Shown: piece by piece, positions 1-11,899 of the stretch
How the letters are laid out: every line of letters starts with the position of its first letter
How positions within the stretch are numbered: the first letter of the stretch is position 1
Assembly: GCA_965262725.1 (NCBI GenBank)
Contig: OZ253555.1
Location: 1,952,001 to 2,016,000 of the forward strand
DNA: 64,000 nt
From: Dehalococcoidia bacterium
GTDB lineage: Bacteria; Chloroflexota; Dehalococcoidia; UBA2979
Reading direction: 5' to 3'
Made by a program: the position numbers and the translations under genes
Notes under the pieces: model-generated
Seen by the model: the letters and a program-made list of their open reading frames with translations, nothing else
Databases searched by the model: none
What the model was told of the DNA's origin: nothing

Positions 1-112
1 CGCACGTCTGCACGTCCAGCACCGGGACCTCATATGGATGCCTCGGTTGTCAAGCCCCGTCCAGCGGTACTTGAACGTCCGGTCTGCTGCGGCGGCGGTC
101 GCGCGAGGATGA

Positions 113-336
113 CGACTCCGGGGTGGCGAAGGAGGGATGAGCGGGAATTGTTCGACGTCTTGTCACTCTCATATTCGCGGGTTGCCAGTGGCAGAGCCGC
201 ATGACCCTTCTTCGTCAGGAGCAGGCGCATTCTGATATCGCGGGTTGGCGACGCGAAGCGTCGTTGCCGCATGGTTCCGTCGCGCAGTCTCCGAAACGTA
301 GTCCCGCTTATCCGTCCTTCACCGCCCCCGGAGTCG
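113..336 (-). ncRNA. putative bridge/seek RNA unit 2 (copy 1)
   Basis: Mirror of 6292-6515. Confidence 0.72.
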
Positions 337-613
337 AGGTCCCCGCCCTCCGCGGCCAGCTCCGCTGCATGCTCCTCACTCGCGGCGATGCCTGAGAGCC
401 CCTGCTCCGTCGGGCGGATGTGCTCATCCGTCATCTCGACCCTCTGCAGGTAGCTGCCGAAGGCCGCCTGGGCGCCCTTCTCCTGGAAGGAGAGGAAGCG
501 CGGACAGCGCCGGCGCTCGTGCGCCCAGCAGGACTTCCCATAATGGTGCCGCGCGAGCAGCGAGCACCCCGCCGACGGCTGCTGCGCCGTCTTGCGCGGC
601 CGCGCGAAGATGA

Positions 614-837
614 CGACTCCGGGGTGGCGAAGGAGGGATGAGCGGGAATCACTCGACGTTGTGTCACTCTCATAGTCGCGGGTTGCCAGTGGCAGAGCCG
701 CATGACCTTTCTTCGTCGGGAGGGGGCGCCGTCTGGGAACGCGGGTTGGCGACGCTTCGCGTCGTTGCCGCATGGTCCCGTCGCGCGATCTCCAGAATGT
801 GGTCCCGTTCATCCGTCCTTCACCGCCCCCGGAGTCG
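614..837 (-). ncRNA. putative bridge/seek RNA unit 1 (copy 1)
   Basis: Mirror of 5791-6014. Confidence 0.78.
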
Positions 838-903
838 ACGTCTCCGCCCTCCGCGGCCGGTCTGTCCTCCTCTCCGTCCGCTCCCTGTTCGTGGCCAGCC
901 GGC

Positions 904-2016
904 TCAGGCGGCCTGCTGCCGCTCTTCAGCGTGGGTGCGCAGCACCGCCCAGATGGCGGCGAGCAGCTCCCGCGCCACGGCCACGACGGCGACCTGCGAC
1001 GGCTTGCCTCGCTCCTTGAGATGCCGGTAGCGCCGGGACATCCGGGAACCGGTCTTGTCGGCCATCGCGACCGCCCAGCCCGGCTGGCCCTCCCGCCGTC
1101 TGCGCAGCGGCGCCCCGACGCGGTACGGGCGGATGCTGTGCCAGCCCGCCTCGACCAGCACGCGCCGGACGTGCTCGTTCCCCGTCTTGGTGATGCCGCC
1201 GCGCCGCGTCCTCGGGCCTGAGCTGTGCTCGCTCGCCACCAGCCCCACGTACGCTGCCAGCTGGTCGGGGCTTCCGAATCGCGTGATATCGCCGAGCTCG
1301 CCCAGGATCGTCATGGCGGTGACCGTGTCGATGCCGCGGAAGCAGCGGAGGAGTCCCGCCTCCGGCGCATACTCCTCACTCGCGACGATGTCTGAGAGCC
1401 TCTGCTCCATCAGGCGGATGTGTTCATCCGCCATCTCCACGCGCTGCAGGTAGCCGTCGAATGCCGCCTGGTCGCCCAGCTCCTCGAAGGAGAGCGAGCG
1501 CAGCCAGCACCGGTGCTCTCGGGTCCACGTAGACTTACCATAATGGTGGCCCGAGCGCAGCAGGAACCCCGACAGTTGCATCTGGGCCGTCTTGCGGGCC
1601 GCAACGGCGTCCTCGCGCCCACGGGTGAGGTTGCGCACAGATTCCTGCCGCTCAGTCGGCTGGTGCACCTCGGTGAGCAGTCCCGCGCGCAAGAGATGCG
1701 CCAGGTTCCGCGCGTCGCGGCGGTCCGTCTTGACGCGGTCTCCCGGCTTTGTGGGGATCAGCGCCGGCGCGATGACGCGGCAGTCGATCCCCTTCGCATC
1801 GAGAGTGCGCTTCAGCCCGAACCCGGTCGGGCCCGCCTCGTAGCAACAGACCACGGAATCCCCGGCCTCGCGGCGCAGTCGCCGCGCCAGCGCCGCCACG
1901 GACTTCGGCTCGTTGGCGAGCTGCCACTCTTCGGGCTTCTTCTCCCCGTGCAGAACGGAGACGTTGATCGTCCGCGCGTGCACGTCGAGGCCCACGTATA
2001 GCTTCGTCTGGTCCAT
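904..2016 (-). CDS. IS110 family transposase/recombinase
   Basis: N-terminal YVGLDVH, CYEAGPTG, KTDRRDA (DEDD); C-terminal GLVASEHSSG..GITKTGN. Confidence 0.96.
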   Translation of the reverse strand: MDQTKLYVGLDVHARTINVSVLHGEKKPEEWQLANEPKSVAALARRLRREAGDSVVCCYEAGPTGFGLKRTLDAKGIDCRVIAPALIPTKPGDRVKTDRRDARNLAHLLRAGLLTEVHQPTERQESVRNLTRGREDAVAARKTAQMQLSGFLLRSGHHYGKSTWTREHRCWLRSLSFEELGDQAAFDGYLQRVEMADEHIRLMEQRLSDIVASEEYAPEAGLLRCFRGIDTVTAMTILGELGDITRFGSPDQLAAYVGLVASEHSSGPRTRRGGITKTGNEHVRRVLVEAGWHSIRPYRVGAPLRRRREGQPGWAVAMADKTGSRMSRRYRHLKERGKPSQVAVVAVARELLAAIWAVLRTHAEERQQAA

Positions 2017-2939
2017 CTGGTCTGCCCCCTACCCCTTCCATGTTCCGGTCCGGTTCCGCTCCGATGTTGCACTCGGAACAGAAACCGACACCGGTTCTCA
2101 AGGTGTCGAGGCATCCATAGGGTCTGGGAGGGCTCGGCCTTGTCCCTGCGTGTTGCCACGCCGGGACCGCAACGGAAAGGGCGATTCCGTAATCCGTTGA
2201 CGCACGAGGTCGAGCAATCAGATCCGGCCATAGTAGTGATGAGGGCGGCGAACAAAGAGGAGTAGACACCCTCGGCGGAGTCGACGGAGCGAAGGGCCGG
2301 ACCGGAGGGGAAGCTGGCGAAGCCCGGCACTGGCGGGACACTGCGCCCGCGTTTGGTGTCACTCGGGCTACCCGGCTACGGCACCTCTTGGGTGCCGTCT
2401 GACCTGACGGAGGAGCCGTATGCGTTAACGCGCACGTACGGATCTGTCCGGGGGGCGGCCGGCAACGGCCGTCCCTACCGGAATTGCTCCCTGTGGCTGT
2501 GACGTGATTCGTTGAAAAACCATTGTCCCAGCTACAGCGGAGCACCCAACACCAGCCGCTCGCGCACTCTTCGTTCGGTTTCCGGTAGGGACGCCGGTTA
2601 CCCGGCGCCCCCCGGACAGATCCGTACGTGCGCGCTAGCGCATACGGCTCCTCTCCCGGGTATGACGGTCGGGGCTGAAACGCACCCTGCCGTATCGGCT
2701 CGGACTTCTTGTGCCACAGGTCACCCGGCTCAGTGTCCGGCCCATGTCGAGTCCTCGCAGATTCCCCGCGAGTCCGGCCCTTGGCTCCTCCGACTCCGCA
2801 GAGGCTCGCGCCCCCTTCTATGAGGGTCGTCTGATCCGCAAGGCCGACGTGGCGGCCTTCTGCGCCGTTCTACCGATCGCGCCTCCCGTCCGCAGCCCTG
2901 TGGTGGTTGTCGGTGCCGATGCGAGTGGTGCCGCCGTCT

Positions 2940-3100
2940 TGTCCCCGGGACGTTGTGGTGACCGTGCTTCTATTCGCACTCGTCGAGGGGCCGCTCCGGG
3001 CCCGGTGCATGATGATCAGCCTGTCTCCAGGGTGTGGGCGCTGCCATCTTGTTCCCGTCCTCGTTGGGACCAGGGGGTTCCGCAGTCGCCCGCGTGTCGG
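2940..3100 (-). ncRNA. putative bridge/seek RNA of IS element B (boundaries approximate)
   Basis: Guide-like segments CCCCCT and GAACAAG match the target; TCATC and ATAGAAG match the circle junction. Confidence 0.65.
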
Positions 3101-3163
3101 CATCTCTCGTATCCTCCGAAGCCCACCGGCCGCCCGGTCGCCTCGCTCCTCGCGTGCTGTCTG

Positions 3164-4255
3164 CTACGCCGCCTCGGCCGCGCGCGCGTGGCGCAACGGC
3201 TCGTAGACCTCCCCGCTCTTCCAGAGCGCAAGCATCAGCACCGCCAGTCGCCTCGCGACCGCGACGACGGCACGCTTCTTCGCATTGCCGGCCCCCGACT
3301 CCGCGTAACGCAGCCCCCACCTGCGGAGGTCGCTGTCGGGGCCGAAGGGGCCCAGGATGTAGTGCGCGGCCTGGTTCAGCACCCGGCGCAGCGCCACGTC
3401 CCCTTCCTTCGTGATCCGCAGCTGGGGCTGCCGATCACCGGAATCGCGGCTCCGGGGCACCAGCCCCAGGTAGGGCCCCACCTCCCTGTTCTTGGGGAAG
3501 CGGGCCGGGTCCTCGATGGTGAGGATGAAGGTGAGCGAGGTGATCGGGCCGACGCCCACGATCTGCCGCAGCGCGCCGGTCTCCGCGTAGCGCTCGCACA
3601 TCGCGGCGAACTTCTTGTCGGCCTGGCGGATCTCCCCGGTCAGCTGCTCGATCTGGTGGAGCACCGGCAGCAGCGCCGGGCCCAGCTCCTCGGGGATGTG
3701 CTCTCTGACCGCGCGGTGGAAGGCCGGCGCCGTGCAGCCCGGAAGCGCCGCGCCCCACGCCTTCACCGCGCCCCGGACGTGGTTGATGAACATCGTGCGC
3801 GCCCGGACCAGCGCCTCGCGGCTGCGGAGCACCTGGAGGTCCGCCTGCGCCATGGCGCTTCGGTGCCGGATGGGGAAGAGGAGCGCCGGGTCGAATCGGC
3901 CGAGCCGTGCGAGGTGCTCGGCATCGGAGCGGTCGGTCTTGCGCTGGCTGCGCGCGATCAGCCTGACCTGCCTCGGGTTGGCGACGATCACGTCGTGACC
4001 GAGCTCCGCGAACATCCGGCTCAGCCACGGGGACCGCGGCCCCACCTCCATCACCACCCGGGCGCCCTGCAGTGGGGTGAGCGCCCGCGTGAGCGCCGCG
4101 GTCGTGGTGCGGACTCGCTCCTCCCGCACGATCTCCCCGTCGCCACCGAGGACGCAGAGGTGGCTGTAGCGGTCGCTGACGTCGATGCCGACAGTCACGA
4201 GCTCCGCATCCCCCACCTTCCTGCTCTCTGTGACATCTGATGTACGCTGTGCCAC
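3164..4255 (-). CDS. IS110 family transposase (IS1111 group)
   Basis: VGIDVSD, VMEVG, KTDRSDA, GLVPRSRDSG..ITKEGD; GTG start after AGGAG. Confidence 0.94.
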   Translation of the reverse strand: MAQRTSDVTESRKVGDAELVTVGIDVSDRYSHLCVLGGDGEIVREERVRTTTAALTRALTPLQGARVVMEVGPRSPWLSRMFAELGHDVIVANPRQVRLIARSQRKTDRSDAEHLARLGRFDPALLFPIRHRSAMAQADLQVLRSREALVRARTMFINHVRGAVKAWGAALPGCTAPAFHRAVREHIPEELGPALLPVLHQIEQLTGEIRQADKKFAAMCERYAETGALRQIVGVGPITSLTFILTIEDPARFPKNREVGPYLGLVPRSRDSGDRQPQLRITKEGDVALRRVLNQAAHYILGPFGPDSDLRRWGLRYAESGAGNAKKRAVVAVARRLAVLMLALWKSGEVYEPLRHARAAEAA

Positions 4256-4611
4256 GGTCGGTCTCCTACCTCTCTCGGCTCGCCTGAGCCGTTCTCCTGG
4301 GCCACCACGTGAGCCCGTGCTTGGAGGGGAAGTATCCCCTCTGAGGAGGGGACCGACCCTCATGTCATCTTGTTCGCCGGTCTCACAGCTACTATGGCCG
4401 AATCAGATTGCTTCACGGCGTACATCAGCGGCGTACGGCTTCTACCTTCCCGCTGCGGCCCCCCCGACAGGAACTGTCACAGGGGCACCGTGGAGCCCTC
4501 CCAGACCCTATGGATGCCTCGACACCTTGAGAACCGGTGTCGGTTTCTGTTCCGAGTGCAACATCGGAGCGGAACCGGACCGGAACATGGAAGGGGTAGG
4601 GGGCAGACCAG

Positions 4612-5724
4612 ATGGACCAGACGAAGCTATACGTGGGCCTCGACGTGCACGCGCGGACGATCAACGTCTCCGTTCTGCACGGGGAGAAGAAGCCCGAAGA
4701 GTGGCAGCTCGCCAACGAGCCGAAGTCCGTGGCGGCGCTGGCGCGGCGACTGCGCCGCGAGGCCGGGGATTCCGTGGTCTGTTGCTACGAGGCGGGCCCG
4801 ACCGGGTTCGGGCTGAAGCGCACTCTCGATGCGAAGGGGATCGACTGCCGCGTCATCGCGCCGGCGCTGATCCCCACAAAGCCGGGAGACCGCGTCAAGA
4901 CGGACCGCCGCGACGCGCGGAACCTGGCGCATCTCTTGCGCGCGGGACTGCTCACCGAGGTGCACCAGCCGACTGAGCGGCAGGAATCTGTGCGCAACCT
5001 CACCCGTGGGCGCGAGGACGCCGTTGCGGCCCGCAAGACGGCCCAGATGCAACTGTCGGGGTTCCTGCTGCGCTCGGGCCACCATTATGGTAAGTCTACG
5101 TGGACCCGAGAGCACCGGTGCTGGCTGCGCTCGCTCTCCTTCGAGGAGCTGGGCGACCAGGCGGCATTCGACGGCTACCTGCAGCGCGTGGAGATGGCGG
5201 ATGAACACATCCGCCTGATGGAGCAGAGGCTCTCAGACATCGTCGCGAGTGAGGAGTATGCGCCGGAGGCGGGACTCCTCCGCTGCTTCCGCGGCATCGA
5301 CACGGTCACCGCCATGACGATCCTGGGCGAGCTCGGCGATATCACGCGATTCGGAAGCCCCGACCAGCTGGCAGCGTACGTGGGGCTGGTGGCGAGCGAG
5401 CACAGCTCAGGCCCGAGGACGCGGCGCGGCGGCATCACCAAGACGGGGAACGAGCACGTCCGGCGCGTGCTGGTCGAGGCGGGCTGGCACAGCATCCGCC
5501 CGTACCGCGTCGGGGCGCCGCTGCGCAGACGGCGGGAGGGCCAGCCGGGCTGGGCGGTCGCGATGGCCGACAAGACCGGTTCCCGGATGTCCCGGCGCTA
5601 CCGGCATCTCAAGGAGCGAGGCAAGCCGTCGCAGGTCGCCGTCGTGGCCGTGGCGCGGGAGCTGCTCGCCGCCATCTGGGCGGTGCTGCGCACCCACGCT
5701 GAAGAGCGGCAGCAGGCCGCCTGA
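4612..5724 (+). CDS. IS110 family transposase/recombinase
   Basis: Identical protein to 904..2016. Confidence 0.96.
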   Translation: MDQTKLYVGLDVHARTINVSVLHGEKKPEEWQLANEPKSVAALARRLRREAGDSVVCCYEAGPTGFGLKRTLDAKGIDCRVIAPALIPTKPGDRVKTDRRDARNLAHLLRAGLLTEVHQPTERQESVRNLTRGREDAVAARKTAQMQLSGFLLRSGHHYGKSTWTREHRCWLRSLSFEELGDQAAFDGYLQRVEMADEHIRLMEQRLSDIVASEEYAPEAGLLRCFRGIDTVTAMTILGELGDITRFGSPDQLAAYVGLVASEHSSGPRTRRGGITKTGNEHVRRVLVEAGWHSIRPYRVGAPLRRRREGQPGWAVAMADKTGSRMSRRYRHLKERGKPSQVAVVAVARELLAAIWAVLRTHAEERQQAA

Positions 5725-5790
5725 GCCGGCTGGCCACGAACAGGGAGCGGACGGAGAGGAGGACAGACCGGCCGCGGAGGGCGGAGACGT

Positions 5791-6014
5791 CGACTCCGGG
5801 GGCGGTGAAGGACGGATGAACGGGACCACATTCTGGAGATCGCGCGACGGGACCATGCGGCAACGACGCGAAGCGTCGCCAACCCGCGTTCCCAGACGGC
5901 GCCCCCTCCCGACGAAGAAAGGTCATGCGGCTCTGCCACTGGCAACCCGCGACTATGAGAGTGACACAACGTCGAGTGATTCCCGCTCATCCCTCCTTCG
6001 CCACCCCGGAGTCG
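5791..6014 (+). ncRNA. putative bridge/seek RNA unit 1
   Basis: Closing stem CGACTCCGGGG/CCCCGGAGTCG; two loops with scaffold guide-ATGCGG-hairpin-AACCCGCG-guide whose guides match target and donor. Confidence 0.78.
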
Positions 6015-6029
6015 TCATCTTCGCGCGGC

Positions 6030-6265
6030 CGCGCAAGACGGCGCAGCAGCCGTCGGCGGGGTGCTCGCTGCTCGCGCGGCACCATTATGGGAAGTCCTGC
6101 TGGGCGCACGAGCGCCGGCGCTGTCCGCGCTTCCTCTCCTTCCAGGAGAAGGGCGCCCAGGCGGCCTTCGGCAGCTACCTGCAGAGGGTCGAGATGACGG
6201 ATGAGCACATCCGCCCGACGGAGCAGGGGCTCTCAGGCATCGCCGCGAGTGAGGAGCATGCAGCG
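6030..6265 (+). pseudogene. degenerate internal fragment of a related IS110 transposase
   Basis: HHYGKS..YLQRVEMTDEHIR..EQ.LS.IAASEE resembles ~5030-5265. Confidence 0.8.
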
Positions 6266-6291
6266 GAGCTGGCCGCGGAGGGCGGGGACCT

Positions 6292-6515
6292 CGACTCCGG
6301 GGGCGGTGAAGGACGGATAAGCGGGACTACGTTTCGGAGACTGCGCGACGGAACCATGCGGCAACGACGCTTCGCGTCGCCAACCCGCGATATCAGAATG
6401 CGCCTGCTCCTGACGAAGAAGGGTCATGCGGCTCTGCCACTGGCAACCCGCGAATATGAGAGTGACAAGACGTCGAACAATTCCCGCTCATCCCTCCTTC
6501 GCCACCCCGGAGTCG
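6292..6515 (+). ncRNA. putative bridge/seek RNA unit 2 (different target guides)
   Basis: Diverged copy of unit 1, offset 501 nt; donor guides conserved, target guides CGGAACC/ATATCAG. Confidence 0.72.
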
Positions 6516-6899
6516 TCATCCTCGCGCGACCGCCGCCGCAGCAGACCGGACGTTCAAGTACCGCTGGACGGGGCTTGACAACCGAGGCATCCATATGAGG
6601 TCCCGGCGATAGACGTGTGCGCGTGCATGGGGTTCTTCGACACCGTGGGGCCCGACCACGACTCGCCAATAGCGCCGTCGCCGGTATTGCCTTCGACCAA
6701 TCCAAAAGCCTCGACACCCCAAATGGCCCTTTCGATGCTCATTAGCCCCGCCCGCACACCCCGCTGCCGACGCTTCACAAGCCGCCTCGCGACGACCCGC
6801 GCACGGCTCGCGGAATGACATGAGTGGCTAACTCTTTGCCATAGAGGACTTCCACCTCCTGCCTACTCGCCAGTTAGCCTGGCGCTCTGGATCAGGGCT

Positions 6900-11037: not shown

Positions 11038-11899
11038 GTGCGTCCGGAAGTCGAAGGGGTGGTGACGTGATGACGTGACCGGTCCGGAGACATGCTCGTT
11101 GCTGCCAGCCGGTGAGAGTCCGGCACGGGTAACTGTCAGGAGGCCCGTTAGCAGGTCGGCGGCGTGGACGGGAAACGGTCTGCGTCGAAGCCCGACGTCA
11201 AGAGCCCTATGAGGGGGAGCAAACGTGCGGTCCGCAGCATGACGCGAAGTCTGCCGCGCCGTGAGACTCGCCTGTCTATTGACAGGACCAAGGAGGAGCC
11301 GAGCCCGGGTGGTCAGGGCGAAGGCCATGGACGAGGTGAAGATCCTGGAATGCAGCCTCAAGAAACCTCCCGGCGTATGGGACGTGGAACGTACGGAAGG
11401 TAGCGACGGGAACCGGAGAAGCCCTCCCCGGCCCGGCACCCTGTGAGAGGGCGTCGGAGCGAGGCGTCCTATAACCGGTCAGAGCCGGGAAGTGGACAGC
11501 CAGCCGGAAGGGTGGCGGAGGGGGTCGTAGTACCGCTGGAGCCGGACGGACAACATAACCGCCGGTGATGGGAAGGACCCCTACTTTGTCCGTGCATGTT
11601 GCTGGGGGTGTGGACTGGTGAGTGCCCCTCGGGGCTAGCAACCACTTGGTAGGGTTCGAGGCTCTCCGCACATGCTGTACCGGCTGGCCAAGGCACGACC
11701 CACGTTGTGGGGAGCGCTGCATGCCATCTGGTGAAGGGCATCGGTGAGCCGGATGAGGGAGAACCTCACGTCCGGTTCGATGTGGCAGGGGCTGGAGACG
11801 GACGCTGCTATGGCCGTGGAGTTGGGCACCACCGGGAAACCGGCTTGGAACTGATGCGCCACCGCCTACGGCTCGCACCGCGCCAGCCCCTGACCCTAC
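11038..11899 (+). ncRNA. ORF-less group II intron C
   Basis: 5' GTGCG; GGTGAGAGTCC; GTAGTACC..GGGAAGG; domain V GAGCCGGATGAGGGAGAACCTCACGTCCGGTTC; 3' CCCTAC. Confidence 0.88.

Follow-up and report, generated by a model that had tools for sequence, protein, structure and literature searches.

How does a transposon come to occupy the same position in two introns that are not identical? This question is raised by a 64,000-nt stretch of the genome of a Dehalococcoidia bacterium (contig OZ253555.1, positions 1,952,001 to 2,016,000; hereafter the window), the left 6.9 kb of which is a nested pile of mobile elements. Two group II introns without an open reading frame (ORF), X and Y′, lie here tail to tail, and each is interrupted by a copy of the same insertion sequence (IS), which we call IS-1. 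We consider it likely that IS-1 inserts in the manner of the IS1111 group, guided by RNA, and that the intron is its best-matching, non-absolute target site. Coordinates are those of the window, or of the genome when preceded by "g", and the IS strand is the strand of the transposase gene. The genome itself is referred to as G000; G003 is a sister genome of the same genus and G008 belongs to another genus.

The same site is interrupted in two introns

Intron X lies on the plus strand; it starts ~262 nt ahead of the window and has its domains V/VI at 2411-2484. Intron Y′ runs on the minus strand from 6887 down to ~2580. Neither contains a reverse transcriptase (RT) ORF, while their main intact relative encodes a 494-aa RVT_1 protein. 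The parts of the locus are listed below, with the evidence in brackets and a slash in sequences marking the insertion junction throughout the text.

1-28, plus strand: stretch in which the 5′ part of intron X (ORF-less) ends (RF02005 match of 166.2 bits just upstream; flank sequence)
29-30, no strand assigned: core CT, which reads AG on the IS strand, bordering the right end of copy A and repeated at 2124-2125 (junctions)
31-2123, minus strand: IS-1 copy A, 2093 nt (100% identity to copy B; ends located)
904-2016, minus strand: copy A transposase, 370 aa (ORF; Pfam run on the identical copy B protein, PF01548 and PF02371)
2124-2484, plus strand: 3′ part of intron X, domains V/VI at 2411-2484 (RF00029, 39.3 bits; at two other loci IS-1 is also followed by this 3′ part)
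2580-2816, minus strand: 3′ part of intron Y′ with domains V/VI at 2580-2652 and without an RT ORF (RF00029, 36.0 bits; sequence)
4371-4502, minus strand: middle part of intron Y′, between both insertions (4369-4504 recurs in public contigs)
4503-4504, plus strand: core AG at the left end of IS-1 copy B, repeated at 6598-6599 (junctions)
4505-6597, plus strand: IS-1 copy B, 2093 nt, with the subterminal inverted repeat TATGGATGCCTCG and CGAGGCATCCATA (sequence comparison, junctions)
6600-6887, minus strand: 5′ part of intron Y′, sharing 98% identity with the main RT-encoding family (RF02005, 170.2 bits at 6631-6852)

The two copies of IS-1, A on the minus and B on the plus strand, are 2093 nt long and 100% identical, with 0 mismatches. 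On the plus strand, the junctions of copy A read ...CACCGGGAC CT/CATATGG...CCATAGGGT/CT GGGAGGGCTCGG, and on the IS strand those of copy B read ...GCCCTCCC AG/ACCCTATGG...CCATATG/AG GTCCCGGCG. Both copies have the arrangement CTCCC-AG/ACCCTATGG...CCATATG/AG-GTCCCGG on the IS strand, and removal of IS-1 with one core dinucleotide restored GGGAC-CT-GGGAG on the intron strand in both introns. A preliminary description of the window had reported an identical IS at one position in two non-identical ORF-less introns and the restoration of this motif, and both observations held. The span 29-6599 that it gave for a 2.1-kb IS does contain two copies, but is the outer span with the cores, the element itself being 2093 nt long. 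Both of the interrupted introns that it named are present, but the second is chimeric and also carries a second IS (IS-2, see below).

The flanks were confirmed as group II introns by the Rfam model RF02005 (group-II-D1D4-6), which gave 170.2 bits at 6631-6852 (minus strand) and 166.2 bits at g1951772-1951998, at a cut-off of 49. For domains V/VI, RF00029 gave 39.3 bits at 2411-2484 (plus strand) and 36.0 bits at 2580-2652 (minus strand), just below the cut-off of 40 bits; an intact RT-encoding relative scored 39.9 bits. In place of the rejoined flanks, natural uninterrupted relatives and a contig with the empty site were used for the intron comparison. The flanks of the two IS-1 copies differ, their 5′ parts being 81% and their 3′ parts ~75% alike. 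Moreover, the uninterrupted site exists in nature: in contigs of three out of four public runs (three studies), window position 4504 continues straight into GTCCCGG, giving CTCCCAG/GTCCCGG. An assembly artefact or a simple inverted duplication was rejected, since the flanks differ and contigs of other studies carry both the junction between IS and flank and the empty site.

The RF02005 model ends 12 nt short of the target site, on its 5′ side. Local folds around the site gave z-scores of -1.74 and 0.01 and placed it in no domain; the preliminary description had put it in domain I, and it may belong either to the end of that domain or to the following one. The motif CCGGGAC-YT-(G/T)GGAG is conserved in 7 of 8 aligned introns from two genera, and the eighth (G008_e) diverges. 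In intron Y′, the 5′ part shares 98% identity with the main family, and the middle part (4369-4504) occurs with one to three other letters in public contigs, which join it to a different 5′ part at the empty site. Y′ may be either a natural recombinant or the product of two occupied introns that recombined via their IS copies; in either case, more than one intron lineage must have received an insertion.

Anatomy of IS-1

The 370-aa protein encoded by IS-1 matched PF01548 (DEDD_Tnp_IS110, RuvC-like) with 64.3 bits and PF02371 (Transposase_20) with 75.8 bits. The element has subterminal inverted repeats of 12-13 bp (ATGGATGCCTCG and CGAGGCATCCAT) with a left terminal extension of 7 nt (AGACCCT, which includes the core) and a right one of 3 nt (ATG), and 873 nt of non-coding DNA lie downstream of the gene, from the stop codon (5724) to the right end (6597). 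Members of the IS1111 group have subterminal inverted repeats of 11-13 bp and asymmetric extensions, 7 nt left and 3 nt right (PMC11187229). The Pfam domains, subterminal repeats, extensions, downstream non-coding region and order of strand matches (see below) fit that description, and we therefore assign IS-1 as a putative IS1111-type member of the IS110 family. The domains, repeats and non-coding region likewise bear out the IS110/IS1111 identity proposed in the preliminary description.

The non-coding region proved to be a tandem of two units of a predicted non-coding RNA (ncRNA), separated by a decayed piece of the transposase gene:

4612-5724, plus strand: copy B transposase, 370 aa (PF01548, 64.3 bits; PF02371, 75.8 bits)
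5770-6032, plus strand: ncRNA unit 1, 263 nt (direct repeat, fold)
6032-6268, plus strand: degenerate fragment of a second transposase gene copy, with 79% identity to 5032-5268 (direct repeat)
6271-6533, plus strand: ncRNA unit 2, 263 nt, 88% identical to unit 1 (direct repeat)

This tandem arrangement moves with IS-1 in all 13 copies seen in two genomes. Conservation is higher in the units (88%) than in the intervening gene fragment (79%), which hints that both may be under constraint.

Two further features of the element were observed. A perfect TTGACA at 6565-6570 lies 17 nt (in IS-1 and the relative L009) or 19 nt (in the relative L003) inside the right end as drawn. It may be the -35 element of a circle-junction promoter; no convincing -10 element was seen at normal spacing. 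In addition, the fourth IS-1 copy of the genome (L122, g2020977-2025007) is split within unit 2 by a 4-kb insertion that encodes IS21-type IstA- and IstB-like proteins.

Guides in the loops of the predicted RNA match the intron site

A consensus fold was derived from eight RNAs, comprising both IS-1 units and the single units of related and more distant elements (records of Dehalococcoidia, Planctomycetota and Eisenbacteria). It consists of two internal loops between conserved stems, with 35 pairs of which 9 show compensatory changes. Across the alignment the stems are invariant and the loop sides, which hold the guide columns, are variable. These features support a two-loop scaffold resembling that of bridge RNAs and seekRNAs and conserved across phyla. 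An Rfam search with the IS-1 RNA gave no family at gathering score. The guides in the loops are:

5848-5854, plus strand: unit-1 target loop, 5′ guide CGGGACC, reverse complement of IS-strand GGTCCCG (sequence, fold, alignment)
5889-5895, plus strand: unit-1 target loop, 3′ guide TTCCCAG, 6/7 to left flank plus core CTCCCAG (sequence, fold)
5918-5924, plus strand: unit-1 donor loop, 5′ guide AAAGGTC, 5/7 against the expected TAGGGTC (sequence, fold)
5952-5959, plus strand: unit-1 donor loop, 3′ guide ACTATGAG, 6/8 against CATATGAG; varies between nearly identical copies (sequence, copy alignment)
6349-6355, plus strand: unit-2 first loop, 5′ guide CGGAACC (sequence, fold)
6390-6396, plus strand: unit-2 first loop, 3′ guide ATATCAG (sequence, fold)
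6419-6425, plus strand: unit-2 donor loop, 5′ guide AAGGGTC, 6/7 (sequence, fold)
6453-6460, plus strand: unit-2 donor loop, 3′ guide AATATGAG, 7/8 (sequence, fold)

As had been predicted from the window, CGGGACC (5848-5854) and TTCCCAG (5889-5895, 6/7) of unit 1 face each other across one internal loop of the consensus fold, and together they match the target at 12 of 13 positions. The top-strand match, CGGGACC, comes first (5′) and the bottom-strand match, TTCCCAG, second, and the two overlap at the G of the core. This is the pattern of the IS1111 group, where the segment matching the bottom strand follows 3′ of the one matching the top strand and the two overlap in the target (PMC11187229). 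Furthermore, the right guide covaries with the target: in relatives it matched the element's own flank at 7, 6 and 7 of 8 positions and the flanks of other elements at 2-4 of 8.

With respect to the element's own ends, the donor loop of unit 2 (6/7 and 7/8) fits better than that of unit 1 (5/7 and 6/8). In IS621, recombination in vitro is supported by separate target and donor loops (PMC11208158). Because unit 2 fits the ends better and IS621 works with separate loops, a division of labour between units 1 and 2 is possible. The first loop of unit 2 predicts another site, ATATCAGGTTCCG, with one exact match and one match with one mismatch in the genome (g2411043 and g328941), where ~0.02 exact matches are expected by chance according to our own base-composition estimate. 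Both sites lie inside a ~250-nt repeat that occurs in four copies, none of which holds IS-1; this repeat had no match in Rfam. ATATCAG is also part of the donor-loop guide in distant relatives. Unit 2 may have been donated by another element, of which the predicted site would be a relic.

IS-1 fills four of five intron sites with a CT core

G000 contains 19 RF02005 matches and 59 RF00029 matches at E<=0.001, 12 of which reach at least the 40-bit cut-off, which makes it unusually rich in group II introns. All four of its IS-1 copies are located in RF02005 introns, 12 nt past the RF02005 match, and these introns belong to at least two lineages. Among the 19 RF02005 introns, the sites with a CT core (GGGAC-CT-GGGAG) were filled in 4 of 5 cases and those with a TT core (GGGAC-TT-GGGAG) in 0 of 14. 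The latter include 13 near-identical copies of the main family, the intact members of which encode the 494-aa RT. There are 58 empty sites with at most two mismatches to the guide-predicted 13-mer in G000; one is in an intron and none holds IS-1.

The copy in Y′ is a separate insertion event in a different intron. Copying of IS-1 into a second intron by homologous recombination was rejected, as identity between the flanks extends over only 9-12 bases beside the element. A scan of JGI (Joint Genome Institute) metagenome contigs for the left end of IS-1 found none, and a shorter pattern gave one unrelated contig (L123).

Specificity in the sister genome and in relatives

G003 contains nine IS-1 copies with transposases that are 98% identical, and its unit-1 target-loop guides, aligned for 5 of the 9 copies, are identical to those of G000. 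This genome provides part of the evidence that weighs against guided insertion into introns. Intron flanks were found at only 1/9 left and 1/8 right ends in G003, and the eight non-intron sites, with identical unit-1 guides, have 2-4 mismatches to the predicted 13-mer, which reduces the effective specificity to ~9-10 nt. No group II match was found beside 20 more distant relatives, nor flanking the G008 relatives L003, L006, L009 and L014. In G000, an exact non-intron site (g2140839) and an exact intron site (g1682998) are both empty. Moreover, the three copies in X introns are in near-identical introns and share one repeated composite context, and are therefore not safely independent. With regard to the guides, the left guide has one mismatch to the target (T vs C), and the 5′ target guide is offset by one base compared to the relatives and pairs with just one core base. 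The covariation of the left guide is weak among IS-1 relatives because their left targets and guides are all alike.

As for the X introns, the IS-1 copy at the third locus has 24-25 differences over ~1970 nt to the other copies, and its intron flanks have 0-1 over 653 nt. The 1 kb upstream of the X loci is alike only to 86-97%. Both the divergence of this copy and the upstream identity argue against simple co-duplication.

Copies at unrelated sites, which the preliminary description had named as speaking against its reading, are thus in part seen in G003, where the eight sites share only ~CCAG/GTCC. Of the right half, GTCC[C/T][G/A/C], 5-6 of 6 positions are kept; the left half is loose, with 2-4 of 5. 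One target half is likewise kept and the other loose in the half-match off-target insertion of IS621 (bioRxiv 10.64898/2026.08.31.748434), although the G003 pattern is deduced from genomic sites and IS621 belongs to a different subgroup. The only RF02005 intron of G003 is occupied, and no empty exact site is left in that genome. Its left and right intron flanks are found on two different copies (L005 and L015), which look like reciprocal products of recombination between IS copies. Since Y′ is chimeric and the L005 and L015 flanks look exchanged, recombination between IS copies is suggested to shuffle intron halves.

Programming of the target towards group II introns, as first proposed, agrees with the 4/4 copies in RF02005 introns in G000 and with the guides (12/13), but not with the mostly non-intron sites of G003. 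Because the same guides are mostly found at non-intron sites there, the intron is not an exclusive target but the best-matching landing pad, used first or kept best.

A second element is found at another site of the same introns

Intron Y′ also carries IS-2, directly ahead of the point where the RT ORF starts in intact relatives. Its transposase is 29% identical to that of IS-1.

2817-4368, minus strand: IS-2, second IS110-family element, 1552 nt, flanked by core AG (comparison of 3.4-kb and 1.9-kb introns; PF01548, PF02371)
3072-3080, minus strand: IS-2 5′ target guide GAACCCCCT, the reverse complement of which, AGGGGGTTC, matches the right flank AGGGGGCG (sequence)
3048-3054, minus strand: IS-2 3′ target guide GAACAAG, equal to left flank plus core, 7/7 (sequence)

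The target of IS-2 is CGAACA-AG-GGGGCG, and the guides GAACCCCCT and GAACAAG in its downstream non-coding region match it at 7/7 positions on the left and 6 on the right. This guide pair covaries with that of a non-intron variant (CCCTCAG and AGCTTCCGT) and its flanks. The variant, which is older (g1707869-1712033), carries ACGGAAGCT and CCCTCAG at the guide positions and sits between CCCTC-AG and AG-CTTCCG, a guide match of 7/7 and 8/9. The IS-2 variant of G003 carries TTCTGAG and follows CTTCTGAG. Overall, guides of the IS-2 family match their own flanks at 5/5 and 4-6/6 positions, and cross matches amount to 0-2.

All four intact IS-2 copies in G000 are in introns at the same site. Three are in RT-encoding introns with three haplotypes of single-nucleotide polymorphisms, each of which also occurs in introns free of IS-2, and the fourth is in Y′. 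The sharing of the three haplotypes with IS-2-free introns favours repeated insertion over passive spread; spread of IS-2 only by riding a retrohoming intron is for this reason not favoured.

Further insertions were seen in and around the introns. A truncated IS-1 relative (left end ACCGTATGGATGCC) is found at ~nt 110 of an RF02005-type intron, in the orientation of the intron, at two places in G008 (L012, G008:C1:747377-751255, and L105, G008:C1:1555000-1558500), with no RNA region left. An IS with a 441-aa DDE_Tnp_1_4 transposase lies upstream of the window (L106, g1950300-1951736) and at ~20 other places in G000. The same end of this IS abuts intron boundaries, among them, at three loci, the 5′ end of intron X; elsewhere the 92 nt bordering the 3′ end of Y introns come after it, which places X exactly between both. 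In the main RT-encoding introns at g1521951 and g1875265, additional insertions of 2.2 kb and 1.3 kb interrupt the RT ORF at nearly the same place (reference 856-885), and the one at g1521951 holds another RF00029 match and may be an intron within an intron. An intron of a different class, RF02003, is located in the window at 11106-11242 (102.8 bits).

Proposed mechanism and alternative explanations

The anatomy of IS-1, its junctions, the matches and covariation of guides and flanks, and the occupancy of the sites were observed directly. To account for them, we propose that the DEDD/RuvC-like recombinase would be guided by RNA from the non-coding region downstream of its gene. The first loop of unit 1 would specify the target, CGGGACC pairing with GGTCCCG on the IS strand and TTCCCAG with the opposite strand of CTCCCAG, with the two matches overlapping at the AG core, where strands would be exchanged. 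The second loop would specify the element's own ends, and units 1 and 2 may share the work. The site of 12-13 nt occurs in one group II intron family, in a conserved segment that begins where RF02005 coverage stops on the 3′ side, and would thereby offer IS-1 several places per genome to land without harm. Intron copies that have T for C at the core are not used, and once the intron sites run out, insertion would take place at sites that keep the core and the right half (CCAG/GTCC). That the RNA is made and bound, which of the units acts, and that a TT core blocks insertion are inferences of this proposal.

That the shared site tells nothing about targeting, because IS-1 entered an intron a single time and was then multiplied passively by intron mobility, segmental duplication or recombination, is very improbable. 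Three of the four copies are indeed in X introns that are 99.7-100% identical and in one context (the DDE-transposase IS, X and the tail-to-tail Y intron), and the chimeric flanks of Y′ together with the L005 and L015 copies, which look reciprocally exchanged, indicate that recombination between IS copies does shuffle flanks. However, the flanks come from at least three intron lineages (X, the Y-like 5′ part and the 3′ part of the public contigs), and the ~9-12 nt that they share are too short for copying by homologous recombination. The IS copies also diverge differently from the X flanks, the upstream 1 kb is only 86-97% alike, and G003 has many unrelated sites with the same core motif. That last finding could also be read as site choice by the protein, with the recombinase itself recognising CCAGGTCC and the 7-mer matches of the RNA arising by chance, as is plausible in a GC-rich unit of 263 nt when the G003 sites share only a short motif. 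We regard this as hardly credible: the matches fall exactly on the variable loop positions of a conserved scaffold, in three relatives of IS-1 and three variants of IS-2 they change along with the flanks, and RNA guidance has been established experimentally for the family (PMC11187229, PMC11208160).

Closer to guided insertion with the intron as the best match is the idea that the guide was selected to match the intron, which would be the natural home of IS-1, all other insertions being secondary off-targets. The intron site is the best match (12/13) in both genomes, and intron sites are filled at 4/5 in G000 and 1/1 in G003. The unrelated IS-2 has guides that fit another conserved site of the same intron family, with four intact copies in three haplotypes and Y′, a third relative is found in such an intron in G008, and the off-target pattern, right half kept and left half loose, resembles the half-match insertion of IS621. 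On the other hand, 8 of the 9 G003 sites are not in introns, no flanking group II match was found in the 20 more distant relatives or at L003, L006, L009 and L014 of G008, and survival bias could give the same picture if insertions in genes are lost. Two genomes are also too few for testing selection on the guide. We therefore hold selection of the guide to be possible but rather doubtful, and the purpose that the preliminary description had given to IS-1, to parasitise or inactivate introns, is unproven.

Relation to known elements

IS-1 resembles the IS1111 seekRNA elements ISEc11, ISPa11, ISKpn4 and ISPst6 in its DEDD transposase, its subterminal repeats, its extensions of 7 nt (core included) and 3 nt, its downstream non-coding region and the top-strand segment 5′ of a bottom-strand segment that overlaps it in the target (PMC11187229). 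It differs from them in that its natural target is inside a group II intron, the word "intron" occurring 0 times in the available part of that paper, and in that its non-coding region holds two diverged units in tandem, each with loop sequences of its own; moreover, IS-1 is known here from sequence alone. With IS621 and the bridge RNAs of the IS110 group it shares an RNA with a target loop and a donor loop, a 2-nt core common to donor and target, and a multi-copy genomic repeat as natural target, which is the repetitive extragenic palindrome (REP) for IS621; the target and donor loops of IS621 can come from different RNA molecules (PMC11208160, PMC11208158). Unlike IS-1, IS621 has its RNA upstream of the gene, no subterminal repeats and the reversed order of strand matches (PMC11187229). 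Tandemly expanded IS110 loci also show partial tandem duplication of the IS110 module, with non-coding repeats beside the transposase gene, but the duplication in IS-1 is old (79-88% identity) and has different loops, whereas that survey required at least 95% repeat identity (bioRxiv 10.64898/2026.08.14.744561).

The preliminary description had not recognised group II introns as a described target class of these elements, and our literature searches agree: we found no report of an IS110/IS1111 element that targets group II introns, although supplementary tables might list one. In the available parts of the key family papers, "intron" occurs 0 times or introns are named only as a class of RNA. 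Known target types of IS110/IS1111 elements include attC sites and transposon ends. The core of IS-1 reads AG on the transposase strand, and that of IS621 is CT. What is new is the natural target class, the mechanism itself being already known, and the evidence for intron targeting is all comparative.

We tentatively consider a wider reading, which we find conceivable but doubtful: group II introns would be a selected home of RNA-guided transposons in this Dehalococcoidia lineage. IS-1 and IS-2, which are unrelated (29%), would each carry guides for a different conserved site, and a third relative is found at another site in a related genus. The core C-to-T change of the main RT-encoding copies would then represent immunity in an arms race in which IS-1 knocks out introns.

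Guided insertion of IS-1 with the intron as its best match would add a self-splicing retroelement to the targets of IS110/IS1111 elements, with one mobile element serving as the multi-copy safe harbour of another. The locus would also represent a natural experiment on specificity, in which one core base (CT vs TT) separates used from unused sites, and the sister genome would show how the same guide behaves when full matches run out. The tandem of diverged guide units may in turn provide a test case for target and donor loops on separate RNAs.

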